Of a stretch of 61,074 nucleotides of DNA, positions 2,696 through 57,925 are shown in pieces. The first letter of the stretch is position 1. Every line of letters begins with the position of its first letter. The position numbers were made by a program, and so were the translations under genes. The stretch lies in NCBI GenBank assembly GCA_032718475.1, contig JAUCBJ010009011.1, forward strand, positions 1 through 61,074, read 5' to 3'. Below the pieces are notes generated by a model that saw only the letters and a program-made list of their open reading frames with translations, was not told the DNA's origin and searched no databases. This stretch comes from Nemertoderma westbladi (taxonomy: Eukaryota > Animalia > Xenacoelomorpha).

Positions 2696-3100
2696 GGCAA
2701 ATTATTTTTCACTTTGAATGCATGTAAACTTTTTTACACTTCATCCACCTGTCAGCCTGTACCGGTACGCGCACTTCACGACTTTGAATCTCTTGCACAG
2801 ATTACTGCGCACTTTTGTTGTCTTTCCAGTATTTCCCCGTCTTTTTTCCTGCCTGCCTGCTATTTCCACGAGGAGACCGGGAAATTTGAGCAAAATATCA
2901 AAGTCTTTTCTTACATACGTACGCGTACGATGCAGTACTGACTGGTAATTCTGACCGGAAATTCCCCAAATGATTATAAATAGGCATATCTTACCTGTGA
3001 GGTTTTATCAATTTATTTTTTTTTATGATAATGAAATTATAATTATACTGTATAGGCCTAGTGTATAGGCCTACATGGTATAGCCTAACAAAACATCAAA

Positions 3101-12259: not shown

Positions 12260-12499
12260 GATAGCAATAACAATATGTTACAATATACCGCGGGCTTATT
12301 CGCAACAGAGCTTTCAGAAACCGAATCTCGAATCACAACTGTGTTAATTAAGCATACATTTCGTTTATCCATAGGCATACTCTTCCCTATTACCGTATTA
12401 TTTTAATTATTATTACATTTATATAATAAGTCAAAGGTAAATTAAAGTCAAATATAAATCTACATGAAAGTGCCAATATTTGCGAATTGTAATTTTATT

Positions 12500-27900: not shown

Positions 27901-29664
27901 AATGCAGGTTTCTTGCCCTTTGTAACAGCCAATGCCTGTAAGAACGTCCCGATATTCTTCCAGTAAATTTTGTAGTCGTTTGTCGTAACCCTCAGAATTT
28001 ATCACTTGGTGTACCTTAGTAATATCCTGTTCTATCATGTCATCTATGCTGCAACCCATTAATTTCATTCGTTTGATCCAATACAAACCGAATAGTGGTA
28101 TGTGTTCACAATTTTCAGCAACAATAAGTGGCATTGCGATCAATTCTGGCGCATTCTCTATTTTCACTGTAACATAAATTACGCCTCGTATTTCCGCAAT
28201 CCCTTTGCAAAATCCTCGTAATTTTGATGTACATTCATGTAATTGTTCAATGCTGAATTTGTTTTTGTATATTTCGTATGATATGACACTGTGTTTTGCC
28301 CCTGGATCAAATTCCATTGTAAGAGGTATTTCATTAATTCGTGTTTGTAACACGATCGAATCCACTTTTGGAAGCTGTACTTTATCTATGGTATGTGGAT
28401 CGCTTATTTCCGTACTTTGCAAATATATGTTATCGTTGTTTCCTTCATTGTTATCTCCCATAACATTCTCAATGTCTACAGCATGGGATGTAGGTTTTTT
28501 GTCCTGAAAGCGAACACTTTTAGTCTTTTGTTTTTTAATGCACGCTTTTTCTACATGACCTTTTATGTTGCAAAATGAGCAAACAATGTTAGGATTTAGT
28601 CGACAATGGTTTGATTTGTGTCCTTGTTTCCCACACCGATAACATGTTATAGAATATTGATTGTAATTTTCTGTAGATTTGTAAGGTTTATATGAAGGAG
28701 ATCTTACCTTTGTATGGCGATATTTATCTTTCGGAAATCCTGAACTTTGTGTAGTGACGCGAAACGTGTCAAATTCTGGTCTCCTACCTGATTGTGCCAC
28801 TTTATATGCCTCTTCATAATTTTTTGCTGTAACCAAAGCTTCTGAAAATGAAATGTCTTTCGCGTGTATTAGTTCTGCTGCAACATGTTCGTCTCGTACC
28901 CCAGCAATTAGTTGTTCTCGTAAACGGTCATCTAATGCTTCTTGAAATTCGCAATTTCTTGAAATATTTCTTAGACGTTTGGCAAAATCCGTGATGTTTT
29001 CTCCCGATGCCTGAGTCGCTTGTATGAATCGTTTTCTTTCGACTTCTTTTGATTTACCTTTTCTGAAATATTTTGTAAGTGATTTTTCTAAATTTTCGAA
29101 TGGTTCTTTAGAAATGTCTGCTGGAAACATCAAATCAGATAGTAAATCTAAAGTTTGTAAACCACAATTAGCGATGAACATGTTTGTTTCAGCCTGTAAT
29201 ATTTCGTTCGGTTCCATTAAATTTCCATCGGCTCTTCTCCATGTAGTTGTACGTAGAATTGTATTGAACATTAATAGATAAGTGTCCCATCTATCTGAAT
29301 CTGGATTAAATGCCTTGCAAATGTTTGTAAATTTAGTTCCCATTGCAGGTGCGTTTGCCATTCTCGTAAGTTTGTACCGTAATTTGAGTTTGAGTTACAC
29401 AATCACAATTAATTATCAAAGTTAATTTGATTTGTAAGATTTCAAATTGTAATTTGAAATTAAATTATGTAATTAATATATGTAAAATGTGAATGTGAAT
29501 CTGTACTCGCAGCGCCAATGTTGGAGGGAAAGGTGTAAAGGTTCTGACAAACTGTTTTATTATCTTCTCTCTAGTGGTATATAAATGAAACTGTAAGTGA
29601 GATTAGTAGATATATTTACATGCGCCATCCTGCGGTTGATATTAGTATTTGTATTAGTCTAACA
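24971..29664 (-). mobile_element. Gypsy (Mag-like) LTR retrotransposon, 4.7 kb
   Basis: Two identical 146-bp TG...CA LTRs (24971-25116, 29519-29664), 5-bp TSD TTCTT, PBS TGGCGCTGCGAG and PPT GAGGGGG on the minus strand. Confidence 0.96.
25219..29361 (-). pseudogene. Gypsy gag-pol (two CCHC, protease, RT, RNase H, integrase) with one in-frame stop
   Basis: CYRCGKQGHKSNHC; FDPGA; VRICGDYK, LPFG, YVDE; TDAS; HIDL, TDNGPQF, SNGAAE. The two ORFs are in frame across CW*PGM at 26236. Confidence 0.93.
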
Positions 29665-32939: not shown

Positions 32940-33313
32940 TTAACGTTTACACCCCAATTCCGCTTGGTTTATATCTTGATTATCAATAAAATAGTAACGT
33001 GAAATATTTATGGAGCGTATATTTGAGAATGTTGAAATAATGCGTTTAGTAGTGTGACCAGCGTCTTGAATTTCCGCTTACCTCTAGCGGCAGACTGGAG
33101 AAATGCAGATCGACCACCTTCCTCAGAAAGACGCAGCATGTGCTCTAGTACATATGCCAATATTCACTTTAAATAAATTAATATCAAGGAATTGGGGACA
33201 GTTATACATTTCGCCCTCTAGCGGCAGACTGGAGGACTCCAGACCGTTTACTGCCCACCAAAGACTCAGGCCGACTTCTACTACATATCTGCTACGTTTC
33301 AGCTTGAACGGAT

Positions 33314-33851
33314 TGTTAGCTTATTCAATCCCGCCAACACCCCATAAAGTTATAAGCCGATAAGCAATATTGGGAGCCACGAGATTGGGCAATTAACCAA
33401 CTCGTGCCATCCCAATGAGAGTGGGAAGGAAGCACACAATAGAGGGTCAGGGGCCAAACCCCTAACCCAGGGAGAACAGGTGGAGTGAACGGGAATACTC
33501 CACGGGGCGCCAACAAGGGTATTAACCAATCAGAGGGGGGAATGGCATCGATTGAGTAGCAGTAAGGCCACCGTGCAATATAACCAATAACCTATTAATC
33601 AGTGATTCAGTTATCTCAGTGCAGCAGTGCTAGCGTAGGGTACAGCCAATTAGTTTAGTTAGGGGATCACGGGACTTTAGTTACCGTATCCCGCCTACCG
33701 TACAATTCACAGTATATCTATATCCTATAACCTATTATTATACACCGAACTTCAGAACTCAGTTATCTTTATTTCACTCTTATACACGGCGGGGACGCGT
33801 GGACTAAATACCACATCGGATAAATCGGGATCCCTCTTGGATCCCGTCACA
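33314..33851 (+). repeat. 5' LTR of the BEL element
   Basis: TGTTAGC...CGTCACA; no differences seen from the 3' LTR; terminal hairpin CGGGATCC-CTCTT-GGATCCCG. Confidence 0.97.
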
Positions 33852-33929
33852 GTAACTAAACCGAGCTGCCGCCCTAGTTAAACTCTAAGAACTGCAACCT
33901 AGCTAGCCGAATCATCAGCCACAAACGAG

Positions 33930-36290
33930 ATGAGTGAATCGGGCGAGACACCGACGCGGACCCCGGACGAAGACCTAACGATCCGCGAGGCCGCGACCAA
34001 ACGATACAGGCCCACGACGCCGGAGCCATCGATAACGGGCGAACCGGAAGCACAGGACGAGGAGGGCCTGGAACCCGAAGTCGAGCCAAGAGAGAGAGAG
34101 AGCGAGACGGAGGGAGAGGGAGATGAGTCGACACGGGACGGAGAACGGCGCGCCGATGTCGCCGGCCAGCTACCGGCCGAGGGCGACGAGCGGCCCACCG
34201 AAACGGCGACGGTGGGGCCGACGGTGCGACGCCGGACGCGAAGAGACGGAGGAGAGATCGGTACCGATGTCGCCGGCCAGCTACAGGCCGAGGGCGACGG
34301 ACGGCCCACCGGAACGGCGACGGTGGAGCCGCCGGTACGACGTCGGACCCGGAGGGACGGAGGAGAGGTCGGCGACGAGGACGTCGGGGTTTCTGAGCGA
34401 CTTCGACGGGCCTACAACGCGACCCGGAAGCTGATAAACGACGCCAAGAAGGAAGGGGCGAAGGTAGACGAGGTGAGACTGAGAAAGCGACTAGGTGAGT
34501 CGGATAGACACTTAAATTACCTAATACGTTTTGGGCAGAGAGAACTGGCCGGGGAGAGAGCAGAAAGGATAGCCGGCGAACTGTTTGAACTATGGGAGTG
34601 TGGGAGTATGGAACCTAGTGTAGCGCCAGTGTACATAGGGCCATACTTGGTCGATGCCCGGGGAGTAAAACCAGTGGGTTGGAGGGGACTCGAAGGGGGC
34701 GAATCCGAGGTTAACCCCGAGGATTCGGCCTCGTCGGTCGGAGAAAGCTCCGGGAGGCCGGGGAAAGTTAGTAGGTCGGGAAAGCGGGGGAAGTCCGTCG
34801 TAACCGATAAGTCTGTTACATCCTCCGCGAAAGAAAGAGTGGTGAGAGAGATAGGTGCCGCATACCGCCTCGACGTGGCAGAGCAAGGTCAGAAGGAAAT
34901 GGAGGAACGGCTAGAGGAGGGGAGAGCGCGGTTAGCGAGGGAAGCGGCATTGATTAAAGAGAACGGTGAGAGGGTCGAAAGGGCTTTGAGGAGCCTTAGG
35001 GAGAGTGACGAAATAGAGGAAAAGGAGTGTAGAGAGCGTGAGGCTAGGGAGGAAAGGGAACGCAGAGAGCGTGAGGCAAGGGAGGACGAGGAACGCAAGG
35101 AACGTGAGGCGAGAAGGGAAAAGGAACGCAAGGAATATGAGGCAAGAAGGGAAAAGGAACGCAAAGAACGTGAGGCGAGACGAAGGGAGAACGCTAGGAG
35201 TGTAGTAGAGTCGGCCAGACGGGACAGCCAGGAGAGTGAGGAGAGAGGGGCAAAGGCTGAGCGAGAGTTAAGGGAATTAGAGAAACGCCAAGGTGTATCG
35301 GCAAAAAATAAGATTAGACGGGCGCACGAGCTGGAATTGGTCCGAGTGTTGCCGTCTGAAAGCGGGGCCGGCTCGAGTATTTTTGAGGAGCCAGGAGCCG
35401 TAGACACGTTCATTAACACCCCACTGACAGGGACCGCACGACAGACCCAAAACTGGTGTAACCGTACGGGCGGGGGGGGTAATAATAATAATGGTATAGT
35501 AGACGTTGTTGATATTAATAGTACCGTATGGGACAACACTAATCAAACCTTTGTTGCAGGAAATACTTTGCCTAGTGGTAGTAATTTAAATTTAAATCAG
35601 AACAATCCCAATACTAATGTAGAAAATAATCCTAATGTTGATGTAGTTACGCAAAATAATTCAAATAATCAAAATAATAATCCGAATTCGGACCTACAAA
35701 ATAACTTAAATAACGCAATTACACAGAATAATTCGAATAATTTAAATAATGATTCTAGCCCGAATTTACAAAATAATTCAGATAACGTAGTCGCGCAGAA
35801 TAATACAAATGATTTTGTTTCAAATGAGCAAATTAATTCCGTTTCCAATATGGGTGCTATTAATGTAAACACGTCGGGCCTACGTAACCAGGGAGCAGAG
35901 GGCCTGGTAGGCCACGTAGTTAGTAGACAGGGAGCAGAGGGCCTGGTAGGCCACGTAGTTAGTAGACAGGGAGCAGAGGGCCTGGTAGGCCACGTAGTTA
36001 GTAGACAGGGAGCTGAGGGCCTGGTAGGCCACGTAGTTGGTAGGCAGGGAGTAGAGGGCCTGGTAGGCCACGCAATAGCAGAGGGAGAGGCGGGGGTGAA
36101 TGGACCCGACCGCAGTAGGGTCGATGTGTCGACTAGAGAGGTATATAATAGCGGGGAGAGAGGTAGCGAAGTTAGATGTAGCGAGTGGGGGGGGGGGCTA
36201 CGAGCACCCCACAACAGAAAGTTAGCGGCGAGAGGGGGGGGGCAGGGAGTGTCCCACAGCCGTCAGCGGATAATGCGAGGGCCGAAATAG
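33930..36290 (+). CDS. Low-complexity N-terminal part of BEL Gag (acidic repeats, E/R coiled coil, Asn-rich block, 13-aa repeats)
   Basis: ATG ~80 bp after the LTR; joins the next ORF by a -1 shift at the G11 run (36187-36197). Confidence 0.75.
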   Translation: MSESGETPTRTPDEDLTIREAATKRYRPTTPEPSITGEPEAQDEEGLEPEVEPRERESETEGEGDESTRDGERRADVAGQLPAEGDERPTETATVGPTVRRRTRRDGGEIGTDVAGQLQAEGDGRPTGTATVEPPVRRRTRRDGGEVGDEDVGVSERLRRAYNATRKLINDAKKEGAKVDEVRLRKRLGESDRHLNYLIRFGQRELAGERAERIAGELFELWECGSMEPSVAPVYIGPYLVDARGVKPVGWRGLEGGESEVNPEDSASSVGESSGRPGKVSRSGKRGKSVVTDKSVTSSAKERVVREIGAAYRLDVAEQGQKEMEERLEEGRARLAREAALIKENGERVERALRSLRESDEIEEKECREREAREERERREREAREDEERKEREARREKERKEYEARREKERKEREARRRENARSVVESARRDSQESEERGAKAERELRELEKRQGVSAKNKIRRAHELELVRVLPSESGAGSSIFEEPGAVDTFINTPLTGTARQTQNWCNRTGGGGNNNNGIVDVVDINSTVWDNTNQTFVAGNTLPSGSNLNLNQNNPNTNVENNPNVDVVTQNNSNNQNNNPNSDLQNNLNNAITQNNSNNLNNDSSPNLQNNSDNVVAQNNTNDFVSNEQINSVSNMGAINVNTSGLRNQGAEGLVGHVVSRQGAEGLVGHVVSRQGAEGLVGHVVSRQGAEGLVGHVVGRQGVEGLVGHAIAEGEAGVNGPDRSRVDVSTREVYNSGERGSEVRCSEWGGGLRAPHNRKLAARGGGQGVSHSRQRIMRGPK

Positions 36291-39200
36291 GTAAACCGCA
36301 ACGACCGGCGACGGAAAGTAATAGGGGGATCGCGAGTATCCCCAGCGGCGTGCGACCGAACAGAGAGAGACAGGTTGACGTCGCGAGAGGGCAGACGGAG
36401 CGTCGAGCCCAATCAGAGGAGGGAAGAAGAACAGTGGGGTTTAACCGGGAGGTCGACGAGAGATCTCGCGAGCGGGAATATCCCACTGATAGGAGAAGAA
36501 AGGAAGACAGTAGTAGAAGTATCGCCGCAAACGATAGAAGAGCGAGGACGGACAGCGAGCCGTCGGTAGTCGAGATGGGAACGGAGAGTCAGTGGGGTCG
36601 GACTCCGGGAGATTGCCGTCGCCCCGGAGAGATGCGACCCGGTGAGATGCATTACGCGCCGAGAGAGGGGTACGCGATGTACCGGTACGAAGATGAAAAC
36701 AGTGGAGAGGGGGGTCGAAGAGAAACTTTCCGACGGAATATACCTACCGATCGAGAATACGGTAGCCGTGGGGAAGATTATTCGAGAAGAATAAACTTCG
36801 ATCCCGAGCAACACATGCAGACTGTAGGGCATACTGTAGGTCTTACTGCACATACCGTAGGCCATACTGAGAGAGGCAATGTAGGCGATAGGATAGCGCG
36901 GACAACGGGATTAAACCCGGAAGTCGCGGAATACATACCGGCGGGTAGGCCAGAAGCTGATAGACCTATACCGGTACCAGCACAGCAGTATGACTACAGC
37001 ATGCAGGGACATAACATATACCCAGGGGAGAGGGGAATTATTGCGGATAGGTGTATGGGCCCCAACATATTAACATCAACCCCAGTACCAGACATACCGG
37101 TGGGGGGGGGACAGGGTGACATTCCCCCATCACAATATCAACAATATACCCCGATGGTAGCAAGAACAACGAGACCCTTGGACGAAAACAGGTCGTGTGA
37201 TACAGACATATGGAGGGGGCCGCTACCCCCGATGACATATCCGAGTCAGAGAAGATCAAGAAATAGGACGGACGAACCGCACCAGACAGGGGAAACTATA
37301 CAGCACCCGTCGAATCCATTAGAAGCGCAGGCAATGGGGATGGCCACGTTGATCGATGCGTTGAAAACGAGGATCGAATTACCACCCGTGGAACCGTTCA
37401 AATTCGATGGGAGCAGGCCGGAAGAATACTTACAGTTTCGGCGAATGTATAGTAACGAAATACTAACAAAAAACTTGACGCAGGCGGAGTGCCTAAAGTA
37501 TCTACAAGTGTACACGGGAGGCCCAGCATACGACATCGTGAGGCAATATCAGGGAATAGAGGGCGGCTTCACGACAGCATGGCGGGCACTGGATAGGGAA
37601 TACGGGCACCCGGCCAAGATCATCAGGCAAACGCTGAGAGGCATAACATCGGGTGGCCTACAGGATAATCCCGTTAGCATTAAGATGTTTGCTAACAAAG
37701 TCGAGAAGGCGCTGATCGTGCTGAAGACGCTAGACGCGCCATACGAGCTCAACGCGTCCAATAACATCACCACGATAGCGCAGGCACTACCGAGCTGGCT
37801 GCGCAACAAATGGAGGAAGATCGCTTTCTCCACCCGAGACAAGAAGGGTGCGGAACCAGGTTTAGAAGAAATGTCAAACTTCTTAAATTACGAGGCTGAA
37901 CTAATAACGGACCCAGTCTATAGTGAAGATAGCCTGGGAAAGGGACCAAAGACAGATCACTACAGGCCCAAACCAGAGCACAATACATCAAACGCATTGC
38001 CGAGGCTCAGACAATCATTGCCATACGCAGCGACGCAGGGGACTGCAAGTCCACAGACAAACGAAGATAAGACAACATCAAGGGACGGACAGGGGAACAA
38101 TAACAACATGAATAAACATAACCCCAGTACGTCCAGTAGGCCAAACCCAGTCAATAAGAATAGTAGGGACTTTGGTACGAATATAACTGCGATACGCAAT
38201 GCATTGTATAAAGAGGGCTACGACCCAAAGAGCAAATGCCAGCTACACGCAAATGCGCTTCATAAAACTATGAATTGCAGGTACTGGCAGGCGCTACCGA
38301 GGCAAGACCAGATAGATTACGCGTCGAGCAATAAAATCTGCTCGCGATGTGTGAAGAGTGGACACAAGGCCAGGGAATGCCAAGAGAAGCCGGTCAAGTT
38401 TGGCCAAAGGAGAGGCCAGACGATGGCAACGAGCACAATAGGGGCGAAGAAGAGAGGAACAGTGCTACTTGGAGTAGTACCAGTACGAGTGATCGGGGAA
38501 GGCAATCGATCAGTAACAACACTAATGCTGGTTGATAGTGGAGCTGCCTTCACATTAGTTGAGGAATGGGTAGCCGAAGAAATAGGGTTGAGAACGAGGC
38601 CAAGCAGGATGGCGGTGACAACCATCTCTAGCAAAGACGAGATCCTAGAGATGAGGACAGGACGGTGCGCAATTGCAGCAGTGGCACCAGGATGCGATTA
38701 TGGGGCAACCATAGACCCCATCCAAGTAATAGAGTCAATTAACATCAATGCCAGGCGGCCAACCAACATCGAGGTCGAGCAATACAAATTCCTGGACGAC
38801 ATTGACTTCTCAATCCCAGACGTGGACGTTAGGAAGGTATCCATCATAGTAGGCATGGACTGCCCAACGGCCCACGAGAGAATGCAAACGGTCTTCGGCG
38901 AAGACAAGCAGAGCGACCCGGTGGCCATATTAACGCCATTCGGGTGGACGCTGAGTGGTCCAATTAAGAGCAAGATACCATTCAGGATGTCGGAGACATC
39001 AGGATGCATGTTCGCGGGAACAATGCAGGAAATGGGTGACGAGGGAGCAGAAGAGCAGCTTAAAAGACTGCTCAGACAAGACTTCGAGGGACTGAAAGAG
39101 ACCGGGGTCGGGACCTCGGTAGAAGACAAGCAGGCTCTACAAAGTGTGGAGGAATCGATGACGTGTGATGAGGGGCGGTATACAATAGGAATGGTATGGA

Positions 39201-40660
39201 AACTACCGAAGATACCGCTACCCGATAATAGAGGGATGGTACTCACGAGACTCCGCAAGCTGAAACAAACACTACAACGGAGCCCCGAGAAGAACGAGTA
39301 CATTCACAAAACGATCAAGAAGTACGTCGAGAAGGGATGGGCCGTGGAGTTACCGGTCGACGAACCGAACACGGACAGGACATACTACCTGCCACTCCAC
39401 GTAGCTTTAGACCCAAAGAAAGGTAAACTTAGGATGGTAGTCGATGCATCGGCAAAGACCGACGGAAAGTGCTTAAACGATTACCTACTAGAGGGCCCAA
39501 ACATATACAATTCGGGCATAGAAGTACTACTTAGATTTAGGAATGGGAAACACGCCTTCACGTGTGACATAGAAGGCATGTTCAACCAAGTCCGAGTAAC
39601 AGAGGAAGATAGCGATAGTCAACGCTTCTTATGGTATAACGGCGAAGAAGAATCGCCGGTAATACCAGTGTATAAGATGGTAGTACAAAATATGGGGGCC
39701 AAGTCGTCCTCATTTACGACGACTATGGCAGTGAGAGACACGGTAAAGGGGAAGGAAGATAGATACAGCAGTAGGGCCGTTGATATGATCCGACGCGGCT
39801 TCTACGTAGACGACGGTATGGAGTCTGGAAATACGGTTGAGGAGATACTGGAAACAGGGCGCGAGGTTCGCGACATCCTGAAAGGATCCGGCTTCAACCT
39901 GACCAAATTCCAATCCAGTTCAGAAGAATTTATCAAGGAAATAGAAGACAAGAAACCAGGATCGACCATGGACAACCCTACAACAGCCAAAGGACAGGAC
40001 ATGGCGATTAAGAGAACGGAATCCCAGCAGAAGGCATTGGGAATCGTGTGGGATAGGAAAACAGACGAACTGAAGTATCAGCTGAGCCAGGAGGGCGCAG
40101 ACACCCATACGAAGAGGGGTTATGTATCGTATATAGCAAGGATATACGATCCCCTAGGCCTAGCATCCCCACTACTAGTCACGGGGAAACAGATACTCAA
40201 GAGAGTATATAAATTGAAGGATGAGTGGGATGCAGAGGTACCAGAGGACATCAAGAAACAGTGGAGCAAATGGACAGGAGACTTGGAGAGGATGGGAACA
40301 TACAACATGCCGCGAGTGTATTTCCCGGACGGGAACATGACGAATCTGGACTTACATATGTTCTCCGACGCGTCGTTAGAGGCATACGGAGCGGCACTCT
40401 ATTTAGTACAACGAGAGGGGCCTCACAAGCCCAGACTAGCCTTTAGCAAAGCTAAGTCAACGCCGCCAGATTCAGCATCTGTTCCCAAGTTAGAATTGAC
40501 AGCTGCGAGACTAGGAGTTAGAGCCACAGCCTACCTAGTGGATACAATTCCCAACATAGTGGAGACACACTACTGGACGGACTCCATGGTAGTGCTTGGT
40601 TGGCTACACAACGAAAAGACGAGATACCCGATATTCGTGCGAATAGAGTGGACGAAATAA
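36185..40660 (+). CDS. BEL/Pao Gag core (DUF1759-like, Cys/His knuckles), protease, RT, RNase H
   Basis: FKFDG..EYLQF, ALDREYG; C..H...H...C and CSRCVKSGHKAREC; LVDSGA; YYLPLH, RMVVDAS, DIEGMFNQV, QRFLW, FYVDD; YDPLG, FSDAS, PKLEL, WTDS. Confidence 0.93.
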   Translation: MGGGATSTPQQKVSGERGGAGSVPQPSADNARAEIGKPQRPATESNRGIASIPSGVRPNRERQVDVARGQTERRAQSEEGRRTVGFNREVDERSREREYPTDRRRKEDSSRSIAANDRRARTDSEPSVVEMGTESQWGRTPGDCRRPGEMRPGEMHYAPREGYAMYRYEDENSGEGGRRETFRRNIPTDREYGSRGEDYSRRINFDPEQHMQTVGHTVGLTAHTVGHTERGNVGDRIARTTGLNPEVAEYIPAGRPEADRPIPVPAQQYDYSMQGHNIYPGERGIIADRCMGPNILTSTPVPDIPVGGGQGDIPPSQYQQYTPMVARTTRPLDENRSCDTDIWRGPLPPMTYPSQRRSRNRTDEPHQTGETIQHPSNPLEAQAMGMATLIDALKTRIELPPVEPFKFDGSRPEEYLQFRRMYSNEILTKNLTQAECLKYLQVYTGGPAYDIVRQYQGIEGGFTTAWRALDREYGHPAKIIRQTLRGITSGGLQDNPVSIKMFANKVEKALIVLKTLDAPYELNASNNITTIAQALPSWLRNKWRKIAFSTRDKKGAEPGLEEMSNFLNYEAELITDPVYSEDSLGKGPKTDHYRPKPEHNTSNALPRLRQSLPYAATQGTASPQTNEDKTTSRDGQGNNNNMNKHNPSTSSRPNPVNKNSRDFGTNITAIRNALYKEGYDPKSKCQLHANALHKTMNCRYWQALPRQDQIDYASSNKICSRCVKSGHKARECQEKPVKFGQRRGQTMATSTIGAKKRGTVLLGVVPVRVIGEGNRSVTTLMLVDSGAAFTLVEEWVAEEIGLRTRPSRMAVTTISSKDEILEMRTGRCAIAAVAPGCDYGATIDPIQVIESININARRPTNIEVEQYKFLDDIDFSIPDVDVRKVSIIVGMDCPTAHERMQTVFGEDKQSDPVAILTPFGWTLSGPIKSKIPFRMSETSGCMFAGTMQEMGDEGAEEQLKRLLRQDFEGLKETGVGTSVEDKQALQSVEESMTCDEGRYTIGMVWKLPKIPLPDNRGMVLTRLRKLKQTLQRSPEKNEYIHKTIKKYVEKGWAVELPVDEPNTDRTYYLPLHVALDPKKGKLRMVVDASAKTDGKCLNDYLLEGPNIYNSGIEVLLRFRNGKHAFTCDIEGMFNQVRVTEEDSDSQRFLWYNGEEESPVIPVYKMVVQNMGAKSSSFTTTMAVRDTVKGKEDRYSSRAVDMIRRGFYVDDGMESGNTVEEILETGREVRDILKGSGFNLTKFQSSSEEFIKEIEDKKPGSTMDNPTTAKGQDMAIKRTESQQKALGIVWDRKTDELKYQLSQEGADTHTKRGYVSYIARIYDPLGLASPLLVTGKQILKRVYKLKDEWDAEVPEDIKKQWSKWTGDLERMGTYNMPRVYFPDGNMTNLDLHMFSDASLEAYGAALYLVQREGPHKPRLAFSKAKSTPPDSASVPKLELTAARLGVRATAYLVDTIPNIVETHYWTDSMVVLGWLHNEKTRYPIFVRIEWTK

Positions 40661-42438
40661 GGGCGAGCACAGAACTGGAAAGGTGGCACTACTGCCCAAC
40701 AGATGAGAACCCAGCGGACTTGCTGTCGAGGGGCGTGGAACGCCACACTTTCCTGAAGAAGGAAGTATTGTGGCGACATGGGCCACAATTTCTGAGCGAT
40801 AGAGAGGCCTGGCCGCCGATGAGGAAGGTGGACCCGGGCTCGGAACCAGTATCAGAAGGAGAGGGAGATTCAGAGGGAGAAGAGATATACTCCCAGATGG
40901 TGAGGGAGATTAGGGACGTGCAACCAGGAAGGGAACTGTGCGATAACCCGACGGATAAACTCCTCAGCTACAGTTCTAGTTGGTATAAGACCAAGAAACT
41001 AGTGGCGTACTGGAGAGCCTTTGGGAATTTCCTTGCGGGAGTCGGCAAGGACAAGAAGACCAGGACAACCATAGATCTGGAAGGAGCGGCCAAGGCAGTG
41101 ATCCGCTATGAACAACGCAAGAACTACGGCGACGAGGTGGAACGCGTCGGTAACCAACAGCACCTCCGGCGGGATAGCGAGTTGATCACGCTGTCGCCAC
41201 AACTCAACGAGGATGGGATTCTAGTAATGAATTCTAGGGTGGGATATAACAACAGTATAGTCGTACCACCGAAACCCATCATCATTCCCACAGGATCGCC
41301 TATAGTCCACCAGATCATATGGGACTCCCACAAATCGATACTGCATGGGGGCACCAACCGAACCCTCACAGAGATAAGGAGGACCTATTGGGTCAAACAA
41401 CTAAGGAAGAAGGTTAAAGCGGTAGTGGGGCAGTGCCAGACCTGCCGGCGAGCGAAGAAGGAAAGAGCCGTACAGGAGATGGCGCCACTACCGGCGAGTA
41501 GGGTAAGACAGCACGACCCGCCATTTACGCATTGCGGTGTGGACATGTTCGGGCCGATAAAGATCAAAGTGATGCGACACACGGAGAAACGTTACGGCAT
41601 TATCTTCGTATGCAACAATACGCGGGCGGTGGGGATAGAACTCGCCCAAGATGCAACCGCATCAGCGTTCATTAACGCCCTAGAAAGGTTTAGGGACCGC
41701 AAAGGTGGGACGATCGCAGTGATATACAGCGACAACGGCACCAACTTTGTGGGCGCAGAGAGCGAGATTGCGGAAGCCTTGGACATCTTAGAAGGAGAAG
41801 AAGTCAGGGCGGCCATGAGAAAACGACAAGTAAAGTGGGAGAGAAGGACGCCGTATGCACCACATATACTAGGATGCGTCGAGAGATTGGTGGGCAGTTC
41901 AAAGCGTCTAATGACGAAGTTAATGAACACCCACATGGTCACTGAGGACGTCTTACGGACAGTACTTGCGAAGTGCGAGGGGATAATTAATAGCAGACCG
42001 CTATATCCGGAGAATGATGACCCTGAGTCATTAGACGTGTTGACGCCTAGCCATTTTCTGATGGAAAGGCCAGCGACCATCGATATGCGGGGTGTAGACC
42101 CAGATGACATACACTCCCGCCAAAGTTGGAAAGTCGCTAAAGCAATAAGCGCAGAGTATTGGAGGAGGTGGGTAGAAGAATACCTACCCACACTCCATAA
42201 GCGAAGCAAGTGGAGGAAGCCAAACAGGGAGTTGAGAGAGGGAGATCTCGTAATCGTCACGGATGATACTATCATCAACAACCAATGGCGGTTGGCGAGA
42301 GTTGTAGGCACCTACTCCGACGAGGACGGAAGAGTCCGATCGGTAGAAGTGCGGATAGGTGGAAAGATAGGTGCCAAGGACAGAAAAACCTACAGGAGAG
42401 CAGTAGGTAAATGCTGTCTCTTAGAAGGAGCACCTTAG
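40600..42438 (+). CDS. BEL/Pao integrase with DUF5641-like C-terminus (continues pol after a 1-bp deletion)
   Basis: ENPADLLSRG, H..HGG...CQTC, GVDMFGP, SDNGTNFVG, INSRPL, LTPSHFL, WVEEYLPTL..RSKW; FVANRV is broken at TTCGTGCGAAT (~40637). Confidence 0.93.
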   Translation: MATQRKDEIPDIRANRVDEIRASTELERWHYCPTDENPADLLSRGVERHTFLKKEVLWRHGPQFLSDREAWPPMRKVDPGSEPVSEGEGDSEGEEIYSQMVREIRDVQPGRELCDNPTDKLLSYSSSWYKTKKLVAYWRAFGNFLAGVGKDKKTRTTIDLEGAAKAVIRYEQRKNYGDEVERVGNQQHLRRDSELITLSPQLNEDGILVMNSRVGYNNSIVVPPKPIIIPTGSPIVHQIIWDSHKSILHGGTNRTLTEIRRTYWVKQLRKKVKAVVGQCQTCRRAKKERAVQEMAPLPASRVRQHDPPFTHCGVDMFGPIKIKVMRHTEKRYGIIFVCNNTRAVGIELAQDATASAFINALERFRDRKGGTIAVIYSDNGTNFVGAESEIAEALDILEGEEVRAAMRKRQVKWERRTPYAPHILGCVERLVGSSKRLMTKLMNTHMVTEDVLRTVLAKCEGIINSRPLYPENDDPESLDVLTPSHFLMERPATIDMRGVDPDDIHSRQSWKVAKAISAEYWRRWVEEYLPTLHKRSKWRKPNRELREGDLVIVTDDTIINNQWRLARVVGTYSDEDGRVRSVEVRIGGKIGAKDRKTYRRAVGKCCLLEGAP

Positions 42439-42547
42439 AGCGGAGTTAGAGTGGAGTTTAGTCGTCCAAGTTTTGGACTGAGGGGGGTGGGATTGAGGGC
42501 GAGACGCCCTTCCCACACAAATAAAAATAAAATAAAATAAAAATAAT

Positions 42548-43310
42548 AGTTAGTTAGTTAGTAGGTACGTAGTACCTAGAGTTAGTTAGTTAGTTAGTAG
42601 GTACGTAGTACCTAAAGTTAGTTAGTTAGTAGGTATGTAGTACCTAGAGCTAGAGAGTTAGAGGGTACGTAGTACCAATAGTTAGTTAGAGTTAGAGGGT
42701 ACGTAGTACCGATAGTTAGAGAGTTAGAGGGTACGTAGTACCAATAGTTAGTTAGAGTTAGAGGGTACATAGTACCGATAGTTAGTTAGTTAGTAGGTAC
42801 GTAGTACCTAGAGTTAGTTAGTTAGTTAGAGGGTACGTAGTACCGATAGTTGGAGAGTTAGAGGGTACGTAGTACCGATAGTTAGAGTTAGTAGGTACGT
42901 AATACCTAGTTAGAGTTAGAGTTAGAGGGTAGGTAGTACCGATAGTTAGAGAGTTAGTAGGTACGTAGTACCTAGTTAGAGTTAGAGTTAGAGGGTACGT
43001 AGTACCGATAGTTGGAGAGTTAGAGGGTACGTAGTACCGATAGTTAGAGTTAGTAGGTACGTGGTACCTAGTTAGAGTTAGAGTTAGAGGGTACGTAGTA
43101 CCGATAGTTAGAGAGTTAGTAGGTACGTAGTACCTAGTTAGAGTTAGAGTTAGAGGGTACGTAGTACCGATAGTTAGAGAGTTAGTAGGTACGTAGTACC
43201 TAGTTAGAGTTAGAGTTAGAGGGTACGTAGTACCGATAGTTAGAGAGTTAGTAGGTACGTAGTACCTAGTTAGAGTTAGAGTTAGAGGGTACGTAGTACC
43301 ATTAGTTAGA
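42548..43310 (+). repeat. Array of 23 GGTACGTAGTACC hairpin cores with (GTTA)n/(GTTAGA)n spacers
   Basis: Counted by eye; two variants (TAGGTACGTAGTACCTA, GAGGGTACGTAGTACCGA) forming a 66-bp higher-order repeat distally. Confidence 0.95.
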
Positions 43311-43813
43311 GAGAGAGAGTAAGAGGTAAAAGGGGTAAATAGGATATAGATATTAGTTAGCAGTAAGTAGAGTTACTAGAGAGAGGGGGGCATATGAGTG
43401 CAGCTGGATAAATCGTGTGGCCACACGACGCATACTGCTGTACTGCATAGGCCCACTGAGTAGGCCAGAATATGGATCAGAGAGAGAATAGAATAAATCC
43501 ATAGGCAGTAGTAAGTAGTAGGACAGTAGAATCAAAGCAAAATAAATAAATAAATAGAATAGGGCTAAAAATCGAAAAATAGTGGTAACACAAGGAAAGT
43601 CGTTCTAGAACATAATAAAAGTAACGGACGGAAATTGTAAATTAGGCTGATTTACTAGCTCCGGAATTAATTAGATTAAATTAAGCTTGAAAGGCGCAGT
43701 TAAGTAGAAAAGTAGGCCATTATCGAACTGTACGAAACATCTTAATACATCACTCATCTGCATTGCGCCTTGGTAAGGCACCACCCTAGAGGTGAGCGAG
43801 TGTAGTGTTCGGA

Positions 43814-46348
43814 ATGGCGAGTAAGCTGATCAGGAAGAGAAAGGCGGAGTCAGGAGGAAAAGAAATATTGGTGGATTTCACCGAAAGACACCCGGAGGAG
43901 AAGACGAGAGGATACTACGAGAGGTTGGAAAGGGGTCACGCGGCACGAGCGCTGCAGGATCACTTCCGGGAGGCGCACGAACAGCGGTTGGTCGGGACCT
44001 ACGGGACGCCGTCGCTGGACAACGCGATCTTCCAACACTTCCACTACGTGGTGAAAGGAGACGAGGCGAAGTTCGGGATTCCGAAGTATCCGAGGGAATC
44101 GCCGAGGAAGGACTGGAAAAGATTCATAGAGTCCGTCAACAGAGGAGGATATATGATCCTAGATGACGAGGGAACCGTGGAAGACGAAGCGGGTTCGAGA
44201 CGAGGAACGGCAGGGTCGGCCAGGACCATACTCTTGCATTTGGCAGCGCCAAATGGGGACATCTTCTTATTCGACCTAGGGACGTATGGGAAGAAGGACG
44301 GGCCGAAATTAGACCGATTGCCGAAAGCGGTACAAGTCTTAGTAAGAGAGAAGTCGACGACGAAAGTGGGATCGGCGATTCGCGAGGACGCGGAGAGGAT
44401 CATCGGTCCGGACGCCACCAACCTCCTGGATATGCAGAAAGTCTTTATGGCTATGACGGCACCGGATGGATTGGGGGTGGTCGAAAACACAGGCCAATGC
44501 GGGGCGGTGGCGATGGGCCAATTATTGGGGCTCGTATGCCACAAACCAATGGATTGGGGGAAGTTTAGGGAAGAATACGGAGCAGAACTAGCGAACTCGC
44601 TGAAGTGGGGAGCGAGACCGGGAAAGCAGGAGGTATATCAGTTTCGCAGAGGAGCGATAAAGGTATATCAGAAGCGATATATCCTGCAGGAGGACTGGAT
44701 GATGATAAGTTTACTTAACTTATTCATGACCGTAGTTATCGAAAGGGAACCAGGGGCATTTCTGTTATCGGGATCACCCCTAAGCTACAGGAGAGCCTTT
44801 AAGACGGCCTTTGACGGTCTGGTAGACCACCTGGGGCTGAAGGGCGAGTCGGTGTACTACAACAGCCGACATCTGGTAGACGGGGAGACAGATACACCGT
44901 ATCAGAGATGGGAGCAGCTAGAGGCGGACAGACGAGAAGCAAAGCGACTGGAAGAAGTCGCTAGACGGGAGAGGATAGAAGCAGAGGAGAGGGAAGAGGA
45001 GGCCAGGACACAGAGTTATGGCTTCGAGGAGCAGGCGGGCCTAGACGAACTTCATTGGACTTCGTCGGGGAGTTCGGGGGAGTCTCTAGGGCGAGAATTG
45101 GGATGGACGGTGGGATCGCCGAAACAGTCGACGTCGGGGTTGCACGCGATGCCCATACCAGCGGGCGCCGAGGGCGACCAACCGCCAAGGAAGCTAAGGG
45201 AGTTAGAGGGATGGAGAGCTACGGGCGAGAGCCAAGGCGGGAAGGGACATAGTGGATCCATCGGGATACCGGGATTGGAGACACTACCGGAAGAGGAGGA
45301 CGACGACGACGAATTCGGAGAGATGCCGCCCATCGAGAGGATAGGCCACTCGGACACGGACTGGGTTGGCGGAAGGGTGGTGACGGCCAGTGGGGCGAGG
45401 GCCTTCTGGAACAGATCCGGCAAGCGGACCTGGGTGCACGAGGGGCCGGCGATGGATTTCGCGGGGAGCACCATCAGGTTGGGCGAGCAACCGGGAACGG
45501 CACCACGGATAGTATTCGGGGAGACGATGCCCGAAAGGGGCGGAGAGATAGACGTAAACAGGGAGAGCAACGTAGAGAAGTTCACCTACCAGCGACTCCA
45601 TAGACCGCGGAGATCGCTTGGGACGAAAGACGAGGTGGGACGCGAGACATTGGTACTCGGCTGCGACTACTGTGGGAGACAGACCCATCAGGAAAGCAGC
45701 TGCCTATACCGGTTCCAACGGGGAACCTTCTGTCTCTATTGTAGAGAACCAAGTCACAGGATGGGGGCGTGTCCACGGTTGCATAACCGATGTCCAAAGT
45801 GCCACTTTCGGGGGCACTACGGACGCGAGTGCGACTGGATGAGCGACGAGGAGAAGTTCACGAGGTTCGAGGAGTGGGCCGACGTCGGGGCCATGACGCG
45901 CCAGCGCATGAAGGCCCAAGAGTTCAAGTGGGGTTTCTTCCTCATAAACCAAGAGACCCACATGGAAATCATAAAGCGAAGGTTACCGTTTACCTATCAA
46001 GAGGTAGCTACGGCGGCATCGTTCGCCGGAGTTATGAACACGCAACGGTACCTGGACAGGTGGACACCAGAGAACCGGAGGGAGTTTAGGGATTTCTTGG
46101 CGGAACACGTACCAAAGGCAATGAAAATGATCCTATGGGACGCCACACGAGGGAGACAACCAGGCCATTCTGAGGGGCCACCGGCGAAGCGGTATCGGGC
46201 TTTAATAACACCAGCGCCCAAGGAGCCGACGACCGGGATCAGCAAGGAAGTGGCAGCGAAGGTCCGGAAACAGAAAGCGGATGATGCCAGAGGAGCGGTG
46301 ATAACCAAGAAACGGGCCAGGGAAGAGGACGTGAGGAGGAACAGATAA
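43814..46348 (+). CDS. Extra ORF: DEDDy-like 3'-5' exonuclease (RNase D/WRN/EXD-like) plus three CCHC zinc knuckles
   Basis: ExoI ILDDEG; LLHLAAPNGDIFLFDL; LP..V..LVREKSTTKVG..IRED (ExoII); NLLDMQ; QKRYILQED (ExoIII-like); three CX2CX4HX4C. First ATG at 43814; the track's 43805 start is GTG. Confidence 0.8.
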   Translation: MASKLIRKRKAESGGKEILVDFTERHPEEKTRGYYERLERGHAARALQDHFREAHEQRLVGTYGTPSLDNAIFQHFHYVVKGDEAKFGIPKYPRESPRKDWKRFIESVNRGGYMILDDEGTVEDEAGSRRGTAGSARTILLHLAAPNGDIFLFDLGTYGKKDGPKLDRLPKAVQVLVREKSTTKVGSAIREDAERIIGPDATNLLDMQKVFMAMTAPDGLGVVENTGQCGAVAMGQLLGLVCHKPMDWGKFREEYGAELANSLKWGARPGKQEVYQFRRGAIKVYQKRYILQEDWMMISLLNLFMTVVIEREPGAFLLSGSPLSYRRAFKTAFDGLVDHLGLKGESVYYNSRHLVDGETDTPYQRWEQLEADRREAKRLEEVARRERIEAEEREEEARTQSYGFEEQAGLDELHWTSSGSSGESLGRELGWTVGSPKQSTSGLHAMPIPAGAEGDQPPRKLRELEGWRATGESQGGKGHSGSIGIPGLETLPEEEDDDDEFGEMPPIERIGHSDTDWVGGRVVTASGARAFWNRSGKRTWVHEGPAMDFAGSTIRLGEQPGTAPRIVFGETMPERGGEIDVNRESNVEKFTYQRLHRPRRSLGTKDEVGRETLVLGCDYCGRQTHQESSCLYRFQRGTFCLYCREPSHRMGACPRLHNRCPKCHFRGHYGRECDWMSDEEKFTRFEEWADVGAMTRQRMKAQEFKWGFFLINQETHMEIIKRRLPFTYQEVATAASFAGVMNTQRYLDRWTPENRREFRDFLAEHVPKAMKMILWDATRGRQPGHSEGPPAKRYRALITPAPKEPTTGISKEVAAKVRKQKADDARGAVITKKRAREEDVRRNR

Positions 46349-47049
46349 GTTCCCGGAGACGAGGGAATGAGACTGAGACTGGGAAATGGTGCGCCTGGAA
46401 GGCGCCGCATGTAACGTACGAACTATTAAGTATAAATTTAATTAATGCAAATAACTATATAAGTGCAATTTGTATGTACGTACGTAGTGATTAGCAGTAA
46501 AATACATACGTTTGGAGTAAGTACTATAGTCATACAACCTTTCTCAATTAGCTACTGGGACTGGGGGACAATTGACTATGGCACTATGGACGAGACAACT
46601 GACAATTTCACGCTTCTTGAGTGCGACGGCACGAGAGGGGGGGGGAGGTTCGTCAAGAGAGATAAAACAGTCAAAATGGAGTTGAGAATCGGAATAAGAG
46701 TGCGAAGTGCGGAGAGAGTGCGAACGCAATTCTAGTGTGGGGGGGGGGGGGAGAATAAGAGGCTGAGTGAGGGACGAGGAAGTCCGAGAGTAGAGTGAGA
46801 GGAGAGTAGAGTCAAGGGCGAAAGTGTTGGGGAAACAAAAATCGTGTGAGAGACGAGCACGATCGGCCCGACATGGACGCCAGGCGTAAAGGGTAGCGTT
46901 ATCATACCCAGAGGGAGCGGCCTGGAAAGCCGACTCCGAGAGAAAAGATTTCCACCCCACACCCGATGCTAGATCGGGATCCAGCGGGATTGTAACGCAC
47001 TTTTTGGTTGATGCTATCTTCTTACCGGGAAGATAGCATGGGGGGGGGG

Positions 47050-47587
47050 TGTTAGCTTATTCAATCCCGCCAACACCCCATAAAGTTATAAGCCGATAAG
47101 CAATATTGGGAGCCACGAGATTGGGCAATTAACCAACTCGTGCCATCCCAATGAGAGTGGGAAGGAAGCACACAATAGAGGGTCAGGGGCCAAACCCCTA
47201 ACCCAGGGAGAACAGGTGGAGTGAACGGGAATACTCCACGGGGCGCCAACAAGGGTATTAACCAATCAGAGGGGGGAATGGCATCGATTGAGTAGCAGTA
47301 AGGCCACCGTGCAATATAACCAATAACCTATTAATCAGTGATTCAGTTATCTCAGTGCAGCAGTGCTAGCGTAGGGTACAGCCAATTAGTTTAGTTAGGG
47401 GATCACGGGACTTTAGTTACCGTATCCCGCCTACCGTACAATTCACAGTATATCTATATCCTATAACCTATTATTATACACCGAACTTCAGAACTCAGTT
47501 ATCTTTATTTCACTCTTATACACGGCGGGGACGCGTGGACTAAATACCACATCGGATAAATCGGGATCCCTCTTGGATCCCGTCACA
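47050..47587 (+). repeat. 3' LTR of the BEL element
   Basis: Same length and sequence as the 5' LTR, preceded by the PPT and followed by TSD CGGAT. Confidence 0.97.
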
Positions 47588-48255
47588 CGGATCATAAATA
47601 ACGAGATGGGAGAAAGATTTCACTTTCAAACATTTCGCCCTCTAGCGGCAGACTGAAGAACTGCACACGGATTAGCCTTCAATTCAATTCAATTCAATTC
47701 CTTCTTTCAAAGTCACAGCTAATGGTCTAGTACATATCTGCCAAATTTCAGCATAAATGGATTAAAAGCAAAGAAATGGGAGGACATTTAACGTTTAGAC
47801 ATGTGGCCCTCTAGCAGGAGACTATTGCTCTGATGGTGTCTGAAAGTCTCTCAAACGTCTCAACTTTAGCTCATATTGATACCACAAATTTTCAACTTGG
47901 CAGCTTTAAATCCGACAAAGTTATTAGCATGTCAAAATCGTAACGACGACAACGATTTCACTTTCAGACCTTTGGCCCTCTAGCGGCAGACTGGAGAACT
48001 GCAGATGGATTCGCCTCCTTTGAAAGTCACAGCTAATGGTCTAATACATATCTGCCAAGTTTCAGCTTAAACGTATTAAAAGCAAAGAAATGGGAGGGCA
48101 TTTAATGTTTAGACATGTGGCCCTCTAGCGGGAGACCATTGCACTGATGGTGTCTGAAAGTCTCTCAAAAATCTCAACTTTTGCTCATATTGATACCTAC
48201 AAATTTTCAACTTGGCAGCTTTAAATCCGACAAAGTTATTAGCATGTCAAAATCG

Positions 48256-48262
48256 TAACGAC

Positions 48263-48304
<42 letters not shown>

Positions 48305-56924: not shown

Positions 56925-57610
56925 CATTGACTGAAGTGCTTCAAAGCGGTTTTGAACTTCTACTGTTTAAGCATCCTTTATAGCACTGTCAGTTCTGAGT
57001 TTCTCCCAGTCATAGTTGATCTGCTTGCTTGTCCTGGGTTTGCTGGCTCTCAAACTGAGTCTGATCTCTGCAGTCACAATTCTGTGGTCCGAACCAATTA
57101 GGTCGAACGAGCTGTATGCCTCGCAGTTGATCATGCTGTTTCTCCACTTTTTGTTTATAAGGATGTAATCCAGTTGTGCTTTGGTTCCATTAGGGTATTG
57201 AAAGGTCCATAGCTTCCCCTTACTCTTTTCGAATGTGTTGTTTGTTGGTATCAATTCACATTCTTCCATTAGGTCTAAAAGTAAGTACCCATTTCTGTTA
57301 GAACTGGTGTTATAGGTGTAACCCTTGATGTCTTCTGGGCCAATTTGGGCATTCAGGTCACCAGCAATGACTTTAACATTGTGTTTCGGAATGTCCTTTA
57401 TAAGTCCAGTCAGTTCTTCATAAAACTTGACTGCTTGTTCTGGCTCTGAAGCATTGGTTGGACTGTAGCAACATATAACTGTTGCCTTGGGATTCCCATC
57501 AAATGTTGCGATCATAACCCTGGAATTTATAGATTCGATGTTGTTTAGTGTCTTAAGTGCAAATGGGCTTAGCAGAACTCCTACTCCACCAATTGATGCA
57601 TTGATTGCAC
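56925..57610 (-). pseudogene. RTE-type LINE APE endonuclease fragment
   Basis: GGVGVLL, CCYSPT, AGDLNAQIG, NRNG, WTF..PNGTKAQLDYIL, GSDHR. Confidence 0.88.
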
Positions 57611-57617
57611 CTCTGTG

Positions 57618-57925
57618 AGACTATTTTATTCTATTTAATAAATACTGTACACCATATTCTGGAACATTTTGTTTATCCAATACGTAGATGCAATAACTAT
57701 TTAATCATACTATTATGTGCTATTCATACATTAACAAAATGTTCCAGAATATGGTGTATTTATTAAATAGAATCTCCACCGGATTCATCAACTCTACTTC
57801 AGTATATCTAAGTGACGGTGCTTTTTATTTAATTTATTATTTATTCACTTTATCATGTTTTATTGTGCCACTCCCAGTCCCATGGCTTAATTAACTTTAA
57901 AAATTAAATAGAATAAAATAGCCTC
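57618..57925. mobile_element. Small TIR element (MITE)
   Basis: GAGACTATTTTATTCTATTTAAT / ATTAAATAGAATAAAATAGCCTC, plus internal inverted repeat TACACCATATTCTGGAACATTTTGTT; TSD not evident. Confidence 0.6.

Follow-up and report, generated by a model that had tools for sequence, protein, structure and literature searches.

The BEL/Pao LTR retrotransposon in the window, a 61,074-nt stretch of Nemertoderma westbladi DNA, carries a third gene (ORF3) in the position of an envelope gene, and this gene is kept by purifying selection across its sister copies. As the best explanation, to which we give a probability of roughly 0.4, ORF3 is a selected accessory gene whose product is likely a 3'-5' exonuclease of the RNase D type; its zinc knuckles would grip single-stranded RNA, and the enzyme would benefit the element by trimming or destroying short silencing RNAs or their precursors. 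ORF3 (43814-46348; all features described here lie on the forward strand) runs from ATG to stop over 844 aa, close to the approximately 845 aa given in the first-pass annotation, and is placed 1,375 nt past the pol stop codon and 701 nt ahead of the 3' LTR. An open frame of this length is expected by chance at approximately 1e-16, given the base composition. The N-terminus is basic, the highest 19-residue hydropathy is 1.3, and there is one N-x-S/T site. The hydropathy maximum and the basic N-terminus therefore leave no signal peptide or membrane anchor evident, and the ORF in the env position lacks these envelope-glycoprotein features, as had been proposed. A linker of approximately 240 aa, acidic and then Gly/Pro/Ser-rich (44894-45610), is probably partly disordered, judging from its composition. 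The basic stretches PPAKRYR (aa 789-795; 46178-46198), RKRK (aa 7-10) and KKR (aa 832-834) resemble nuclear import signals. The ORF3 protein had no Pfam match at E<=1.

On its Pfam domains, the carrier is a BEL/Pao element, as the first-pass annotation had claimed: Peptidase_A17 (2e-40), DUF1759 (2e-10) and DUF5641 (2.5e-24) all exceeded their cut-offs. The element spans 33314-47587 (14,274 bp) with a 5-bp target-site duplication, CGGAT, which stands just before the 5' LTR (33314-33851; 538 bp, TG...CA) and after the 3' LTR (47050-47587), the two LTRs being identical at 538/538 bases. A polypurine tract of G10 (47040-47049) is preceded by a 13-bp hairpin; the LTR ends, target-site duplication and polypurine tract all fit a BEL/Pao element. 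The element is young and much-copied. A low-complexity charged ORF (33903-36290; 795 aa between stops, with its first ATG at 33930) without Pfam match lies upstream of gag-pol and overlaps it in another frame. Gag, protease, reverse transcriptase (RT) and the start of RNase H follow at 36182-40660 (DUF1759, two Cys-His boxes, LVDSG, YVDD, DAS and Peptidase_A17), and the remaining pol at 40522-42438, which in this copy lies in another frame, contains the integrase zinc finger, the rve core and DUF5641. A tandem array of 32/66-nt units (42546-43313) lies between pol and ORF3. The order of protease (38528), RT (YVDD, 39803), RNase H (DAS, 40367) and integrase (41329-41878), based on motifs as in PMC554778, matches BEL/Pao. 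The triple Cys-His box of gag was absent, and two boxes, the first with His at its second position, were found before the protease. The triple box is a common BEL/Pao hallmark that is not universal, and because Tas, a recognised member, lacks it (PMC554778), its absence was not treated as excluding BEL/Pao. Rfam and tRNA scans of the whole window were empty.

When contigs from two DNA runs of the same organism were mapped on the window, 13,429 and 6,574 of them aligned, with cover in 30/30 bins, and the depth of ORF3 was 0.52 and 0.74 of that of the LTR. A further run under another organism label, RNA only by guess, gave 24 contigs at low depth, which speak neither for nor against expression of ORF3. 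Variation among copies was taken from the best-supported 40 of 692 substitutions and 12 of 97 indels, which are not a random draw and cover no catalytic codon. Among these best-supported 40 of 692, 32 of the 37 substitutions in ORF3 were synonymous (33% expected for random transitions; binomial, approximately 1e-10), including 15/15 in the exonuclease domain; none of the best-supported 12 of 97 indels lay inside ORF3. The comparison between copies that the first-pass annotation had proposed thus yielded an excess of silent changes, and ORF3 is kept by purifying selection across sister copies, family-wide. Given its presence and selection in sister copies, it is therefore not a one-off neutral insertion.

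Residues 93-315 of ORF3 (44090-44758) likely form a DEDDy 3'-5' exonuclease domain of the RNase D/WRN/PolA-exo type, with D117, E119, D192, Y289 and E293/D294 as candidate catalytic residues; all four positions of the candidate site are acidic and the Tyr is present. Every motif named in the first-pass annotation was found: D117-x-E119 (44162-44170), LLHLAA at 140, IFLFD at 150, KVGSAIRED at 184-192, NLLDMQ at 203 and QKRYILQED at 286-294. In the ESM Atlas, 25 of 30 matches were clusters with PF01612 (DNA_pol_A_exo1), the best at 0.94 (168/256 features) with the family annotated on 34% of members; the top three clusters were unnamed fungal proteins, and shuffled proteins attain 0.9 in this search 4-10 times per 100. 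Aligned by hhalign with a profile of 89 bacterial PF01612 domains, the domain scored 24.4 (shuffles, 13.1 +/- 2.2, 0/233 as high), with a match probability of just 6.6%. Among subfamilies, RNase D was matched by hhalign over the greatest length, and the LLDMQ and W-ARP motifs fell in register. Further, hmmsearch gave ORF3 3.8 bits, the best among the 83 frames of the window and a score reached by 2/2,000 shuffles; the subfamily profiles on their own were not significant (28, 565 and 76 of 2,000 shuffles reached the score).

MAFFT placed D117, E119 and D192 on the ExoI/ExoII catalytic columns in 12/12 runs, a test that is weak alone, as shuffles put D, E and D on the three columns in 5/86 runs. 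The alignment stayed in register across approximately 200 residues. ExoIII was aligned in 3 of the 12 runs (Y289-x3-E293 in 2, I290/D294 in 1) and unaligned in 9; the Y289-x3-E293 register also occurred in alignment A1, and ExoIII was best aligned when PolA domains were included. ExoIII is non-canonical, with E (or a one-residue shift) versus D in 89/89 rows of the PF01612 family, and a 12-residue insertion precedes it. No Pfam or NCBIfam match to the domain was obtained even at E<=10, and solved structures searched by sequence gave no match. Because the Pfam cut-off was missed, we named the domain RNase D-like and did not file it under PF01612. We infer the exonuclease from profile and language-model signals that are weak but agree with each other, and not from a direct family match. 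Of the proposed DEDDy enzyme, D117/E119/D192 stood in register, whereas the third motif, Y289-x3-E293 or Y-x4-D294, depends on the alignment.

The single-sequence AlphaFold model of the domain had a pLDDT of 32 and its fold search returned no Z of at least 5; the model is unusable, and this empty search therefore says nothing about the fold. The model guided by the DEDDy alignment (pLDDT 76, pTM 0.74) is circular as evidence for a DEDDy fold. Its top Foldseek match was Trypanosoma brucei RNase D (TbRND; E 4.4e-6, TMq 0.48, rmsd 6.9), a protein outside the guiding alignment that also gave a VIA Z of 11.4 (rmsd 3.9, 186 aligned). Apicoplast polymerase, diDNase, Klenow, RNase D, Nibbler, TbRND and WRN all had Z values of 11-12, and Exd1 and Egalitarian were among the matches; these matches do not separate RNA-acting from DNA-acting subfamilies. 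Taken together, the N-terminal domain very probably has the DEDDy fold, and it is reasonably likely to be catalytic, with two metals held by D117/E119/D192 together with Y289 and E293 or D294.

The three CX2CX4HX4C zinc knuckles (aa 617-673; 45662-45703, 45731-45772 and 45791-45832) had also been predicted, with an end at 45835 in place of 45832. Even one such knuckle occurred in 0/20,000 shuffles of the ORF3 protein. An ESM Atlas search with aa 595-790 gave leads that were all below 0.9 (zf-CCHC, DUF8363), and TbRND was also met by sequence through the knuckles, at an E of 0.62 only. A copy of the element's own gag was considered as their source and rejected, as tblastn found no match elsewhere in the window. 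The knuckles lie approximately 300 aa from the exonuclease core (28 aa in TbRND), a distance that counts against the preferred explanation.

Word-index searches found no relative of the whole protein (lengths 464-1477), the exonuclease domain (131-419) or the knuckle region (341-2000), and an exact look-up of the protein was negative. HMMER with aa 1-349 against 1.84 billion representatives returned one match, to a 14-fold repeat protein over 19 residues, which is spurious, and the one plasmid match (E 7) was discarded. None of 68 metagenome and 10 viral candidate stretches was related to ORF3, and no DEDDy ORF of rotifer retroelements (Juno, Vesta, Athena) appeared in the word-index search with the exonuclease domain or in the HMMER search.

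Under the preferred explanation, the three knuckles would hold single-stranded RNA, by analogy with the trypanosome enzyme, and the core would trim RNA 3'-5' using two metals via D117/E119/D192. The protein would be made from a separate message and act in trans, possibly in the nucleus; its targets, we guess, may be the short RNAs of silencing or the precursors of these. Against this, mature piRNAs bear a 2'-O-methyl group at the 3' end, which hinders many exonucleases. A more specific claim, possible but doubtful, is that the family has built the RNase D core and zinc-knuckle RNA clamp itself, in convergence with trypanosome RNase D, and that the enzyme destroys small RNAs to suppress piRNA/siRNA silencing, or matures a tRNA-independent self-primer; if true, this would account for the high copy number of the family. 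Counting against a silencing role, exonuclease ORF3s of rotifers are not clearly tied to copy number in the available text of PMC5408684. Proofreading for a long genome, also suggested in the first-pass annotation, found no support because ORF3 is not part of pol and the element, at 14.3 kb, falls within the 2-15 kb that PMC3118150 applies to BEL/Pao elements of full length.

An active exonuclease might instead serve the element's own replication, trimming an RNA made from the element from its 3' tail down to the primer duplex (tRNA-free self-priming) or clearing RNA or cDNA ends; we consider this rather doubtful. The primer-site position (33852-33877) is without the tRNA-type TGG, which does not occur within 100 nt after the 5' LTR (a neighbouring gypsy element shows T-TGG). 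Over its first 9-10 bases, the site is complementary to the element's own LTR at 33653-33661 and 33676-33684; these 9-nt exact complements lie downstream of TATA-like and TCAGT motifs, and an anchored 9-mer complement occurs in 23/5,000 LTR shuffles. Removal of single-stranded tails from structured RNAs is also an activity of RNase D-type enzymes (PMC5408684). However, the energy of the 26-nt duplex was no better than chance (matched by 397/1,000 shuffles and 151/1,007 other 26-mers), a splice-built primer was rejected for want of a useful junction complement (best 10 nt, 2 from the first exon), and ORF3 is unfused to gag or pol, which leaves its packaging unexplained.

It is unlikely that ORF3 is a pseudo-nuclease, in which the DEDDy fold is retained for binding RNA or as an adaptor, as in EXD1, Maelstrom and Egalitarian, and the protein sequesters or escorts RNA without cutting. 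The non-canonical ExoIII, the insertion ahead of it, the Exd1 and Egalitarian matches of the guided model and the existence of DEDD derivatives that are inactive but belong to the piRNA pathway (PMC5408684) all favor such a module, but the four acidic positions and the Tyr are retained, and rotifer ORF3s with a D-to-E change are still described as having intact invariant residues (PMC5408684). Improbable is an exonuclease of the WRN, PolA-exo or TREX-like kind that acts on DNA, processing cDNA ends before integration or removing the element's cDNA so that it does not alarm the host. DNA enzymes tie for the top matches of the guided model, ExoIII aligns best with PolA domains included, the basic stretches suggest nuclear import, and DNA-end processing has been proposed for the DEDDy domain of Dada transposons (PMC3706591); nevertheless, retroviral-type knuckles favor single-stranded RNA (TbRND; PMC7797062), the longest hhalign match was to RNase D with both motifs in register, and the element already has integrase and RNase H motifs. 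That the domain is no exonuclease, and ORF3 an orphan nucleic-acid-binding accessory protein with a coincidental motif order, is very improbable: no ORF3 search found a family or homologue and the Atlas caveats above apply, but two methods sharing no data both gave PF01612, with register kept over approximately 200 residues.

Within the open-access literature searched, we found no exonuclease cargo of BEL/Pao elements, and the word "exonuclease" is absent from the text of PMC3118150; entries in Repbase, Dfam and GyDB, supplements or subscription papers may hold a precedent. Tas and Cer7 (PMC554778) and mosquito Pao elements with a Chuviridae glycoprotein (PMC7642597) likewise add a gene to a BEL/Pao backbone, but their cargo is a membrane glycoprotein (env in Tas and Cer7), whereas ORF3 is without a membrane segment and has its one N-x-S/T site. 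Dada DNA transposons of Laccaria and Ectocarpus also bear a DEDDy exonuclease, inserted, however, inside the DDE transposase and with four canonical catalytic residues (PMC3706591). TbRND (PDB 7C42/7C45), whose CCHC fingers bind RNA and whose overexpression depletes guide RNAs, resembles ORF3 in having a DEDD exonuclease and then tandem CCHC fingers, but is a mitochondrial enzyme of the cell whose four fingers lie 28 aa from the core (PMC7797062), in contrast to three at approximately 300 aa; at 17% identity it is an architectural analogue, with no orthology implied.

Another close parallel is the precedent named in the first-pass annotation, namely the DEDDy exonuclease ORF3 found in bdelloid rotifers, both in the LTR retrotransposons Juno1/2 and Vesta2/5 and in Athena/Terminon elements (PMC5408684). 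There, too, an RNase D-like gene without a membrane segment lies downstream of pol, one catalytic D is changed to E, activity is recent and the function is conjectural, as here (PMC5408684). Unlike those carriers, which are rotifer clades (gypsy-like), the present one is BEL/Pao by Pfam, and its 844-aa ORF3 has three CCHC knuckles where Vesta2/5 have a Cys-His-Cys motif (PMC5408684), the available text of which contains neither "CCHC" nor "zinc knuckle". By description, the two are also set apart by the change in ExoIII (DEDE) versus DEED in rotifers. Further, the rotifer genes, which sit at low copy number and give no evidence of being selected, are reported with no significant departure from neutrality (PMC5408684), whereas ORF3 is intact, widespread and under strong purifying selection. 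Exonuclease third genes are thus already known for gypsy-like rotifer elements, and such cargo has so far been described only in transposon groups other than BEL/Pao. Few counter-defence or accessory enzymes of animal retrotransposons have been identified, and ORF3 offers a single soluble protein for direct study of activity, substrate and effect on silencing. Its occurrence in a separate retrotransposon group, with its own putative RNA-binding module, suggests that retrotransposons have captured DEDD nucleases repeatedly, as a genuine strategy.

The element at 33314-47587 (14,274 bp) is of the LTR type, with a pair of identical 538-bp LTRs that run from TG to CA, between two copies of the target duplication CGGAT. 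Because both LTRs are identical, the insertion is recent. A G10 tract lies directly before the 3' LTR. Pfam matches to Peptidase_A17 (2e-40), DUF1759 (2e-10) and DUF5641 (2.5e-24) and the motif order of pol (protease, RT with YVDD, RNase H with DAS, integrase) agreed with the class named in the first-pass annotation, and we file the element as BEL/Pao according to its domain content. BEL/Pao elements are described as metazoan (PMC3118150), which points to an animal host. The gag possesses two Cys-His boxes (38237-38380) instead of the usual three; Tas likewise lacks the triple-box hallmark (PMC554778). A high-copy repeat surrounds the element, with repeat motifs on both flanks (33081-33267 and 47610-48268). 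Elsewhere, the window contains a compact gypsy-type element on the minus strand (24971-29664; identical 146-nt repeats, TGG primer site), an adjoining ORF for a DDE_1 transposase that bears a FYVE-like finger (23232-24815), a single-exon Ist1-domain gene (3089-4429) and broken LINE-type elements with endonuclease and RT pieces (11525-15690 and 56967-57620).

The coding region of this copy changes frame twice, within 36182-36290 and within 40522-40660. The latter change, in pol between the start of RNase H and the integrase part, may represent a mutation, an assembly error or recoding. Before gag, in another frame, a charged, repetitive 795-aa ORF (33903-36290) with tandem repeats of 111, 33 and 39 nt overlaps the gag-pol frame where two G runs occur; it may be an extended N-terminal part of gag, interrupted in this copy or by the assembly, or else a gene of its own. 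The tract 42546-43313 consists of some 23 units of a TTAG- and GGTAC-rich 32/66-nt repeat that loosely resembles the LTR segment 33635-33661. The 3' untranslated stretch (46349-47049) folds better than 20/20 shuffles (z -5.2) and includes a 13-bp hairpin adjoining the polypurine tract.

The third gene, ORF3 (43814-46348), begins 1,375 nt past the pol stop and ends 701 nt before the LTR. Its open frame of 844 aa was confirmed as intact, all motifs named previously were present on re-reading, and no membrane segment was found, consistent with the reported lack of a TM anchor. Three CX2CX4HX4C zinc knuckles are located at aa 617-673, whereas 0/20,000 shuffles of the protein contained even a single one. 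The linker is first acidic and then Gly-, Pro- and Ser-rich, and short basic stretches near both ends of the protein resemble nuclear import signals.

To compare copies, we used the stretch 43400-48200 against 4 of 7 listed sequencing runs. In two DNA runs of the same organism, X1 and X2, all identity classes down to 80% were counted; note that whichever of them matches best may itself be the source of the window. Copies were read from short contigs of this stretch, pol lying outside it. There were 13,429 (X1) and 6,574 (X2) contigs, which covered 30/30 bins. The summed depth of ORF3 relative to the LTR was 0.52 and 0.74, respectively, as expected if most elements carry ORF3, depth not being copy number. 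Among the best-supported 40 of 692 substitutions, all outside catalytic codons, 37 were inside ORF3 and 32 of these were synonymous, where random transitions would give 33%; of those in the exonuclease domain (aa 93-315), 15/15 were synonymous. Further, none of the best 12 of 97 indels was within ORF3, which makes up 53% of the stretch, a count biased by homopolymers and LTR depth. This coverage and the mostly synonymous changes argue against a one-off neutral insertion absent from sister copies. ORF3 is real, intact and selected. Decayed copies also exist: some in X1 have a 745 nt deletion at 45641-46387 that removes the knuckles, and some in X2 have a deletion joint inside the exonuclease domain (44195-44375).

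The exonuclease domain had no match in Pfam or NCBIfam at E<=10 and none among solved structures searched by sequence, and searches of protein, metagenome, viral and plasmid sequences for ORF3 homologs returned no accepted relative. In the ESM Atlas, 25/30 matches to aa 60-350 were clusters carrying DNA_pol_A_exo1; the best of these scored 0.94 with 168/256 features, the family occurring in 34% of its members. The three highest matches overall (0.94-0.95) were unnamed fungal clusters. A profile of 89 bacterial PF01612 domains (30 RNase D, 41 short stand-alone, 18 PolA) gave ORF3 3.8 bits in hmmsearch, a score reached by 2/2,000 shuffles, and ranked it first of 83 window frames; with the three subfamily profiles used singly, the score was not significant. 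With hhalign the domain scored 24.4; 233 shuffles gave 13.1 +/- 2.2 and never exceeded 20.5, and the domain read in reverse gave 12.9. The probability stated by hhalign was only 6.6%. MAFFT placed D117, E119 and D192 on catalytic columns in 12/12 runs, a three-column test passed by shuffles in 5/86 runs. ExoIII was aligned in 3/12 runs (Y289/E293 twice, I290/D294 once). The full alignment pairs LLDMQ of ORF3 with LIDTQ and LKWGARP with TDWLARP, and needs a 12-residue insertion ahead of YILQED.

A single-sequence fold model reached pLDDT 32, and one guided by the DEDDy alignment reached pLDDT 76 and pTM 0.74. The guided model matched DEDDy enzymes throughout, with Trypanosoma brucei RNase D (TbRND) first in Foldseek and E. 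coli RNase D at rank 33; it shows compatibility with the fold rather than independent proof. The Atlas, hhalign and the three acidic columns support the proposed DEDDy exonuclease, and the guided fold is compatible with it. We consider it very probable that the N-terminal domain has a DEDDy fold and rather likely that its candidate site is catalytically competent; ORF3 probably combines an exonuclease of RNase D type with a clamp formed by the knuckles.

In TbRND, RNA is held by the CCHC fingers upstream of its active site, and guide RNAs are depleted when the enzyme is overexpressed (PMC7797062). If ORF3 works in the same way, its substrate would be single-stranded RNA, bound by the knuckles and shortened from the 3' end. 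Being encoded apart from gag and pol and having possible import signals, ORF3 would act in trans; as targets, our best guess is short silencing RNAs or the precursors of these. We assign this whole chain a probability of roughly 0.4. The more specific reading of ORF3 as an enzyme that suppresses silencing, or as a nuclease that matures a primer, seems rather unlikely.

The main alternative is that the exonuclease works inside the element's own replication. Unlike the neighbouring gypsy element, this element has no tRNA-type primer site, and the position 33852-33877 has 9-nt complements in its own LTR (23/5,000 shuffles); however, longer pairing was no better than chance (397/1,000 shuffles) and no splice-built primer was found in the element. 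The complementarity, which involves two LTR places (33635-33661 and 33676-33684), is a possible self-priming signature with mixed statistics. ORF3 could also be a non-catalytic RNA binder or a DNA exonuclease, RNA- and DNA-acting members tying in VIA-align (Z 11-12). A non-exonuclease orphan would fit the empty family searches, and the agreement of the Atlas and hhalign speaks against it.

Exonuclease cargo has a precedent, as the first-pass annotation noted, in bdelloid rotifers. Juno and Vesta carry putative RNase D-like ORF3s (DEDD changed to DEED) that were acquired at least twice and whose departure from neutrality is not significant (PMC5408684); reviews restate these findings (PMC6431247, PMC5718144). 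Other papers describe DnaQ-like domains as an accessory feature well known from LTR elements (PMC6338049), report a DEDDy domain in Dada DNA transposons (PMC3706591) and name accessory genes for groups other than BEL/Pao (PMC2774666). Searches of openly readable main texts yielded no published case in BEL/Pao. The only described protein we found with a layout like that of ORF3, a DEDD exonuclease with CCHC fingers, is TbRND, a combination described as very unusual by its authors (PMC7797062). A transposon-borne exonuclease is itself already known; relative to these published cases, what is new about ORF3 is the group that carries it, the architecture of the protein and how strongly it is selected.
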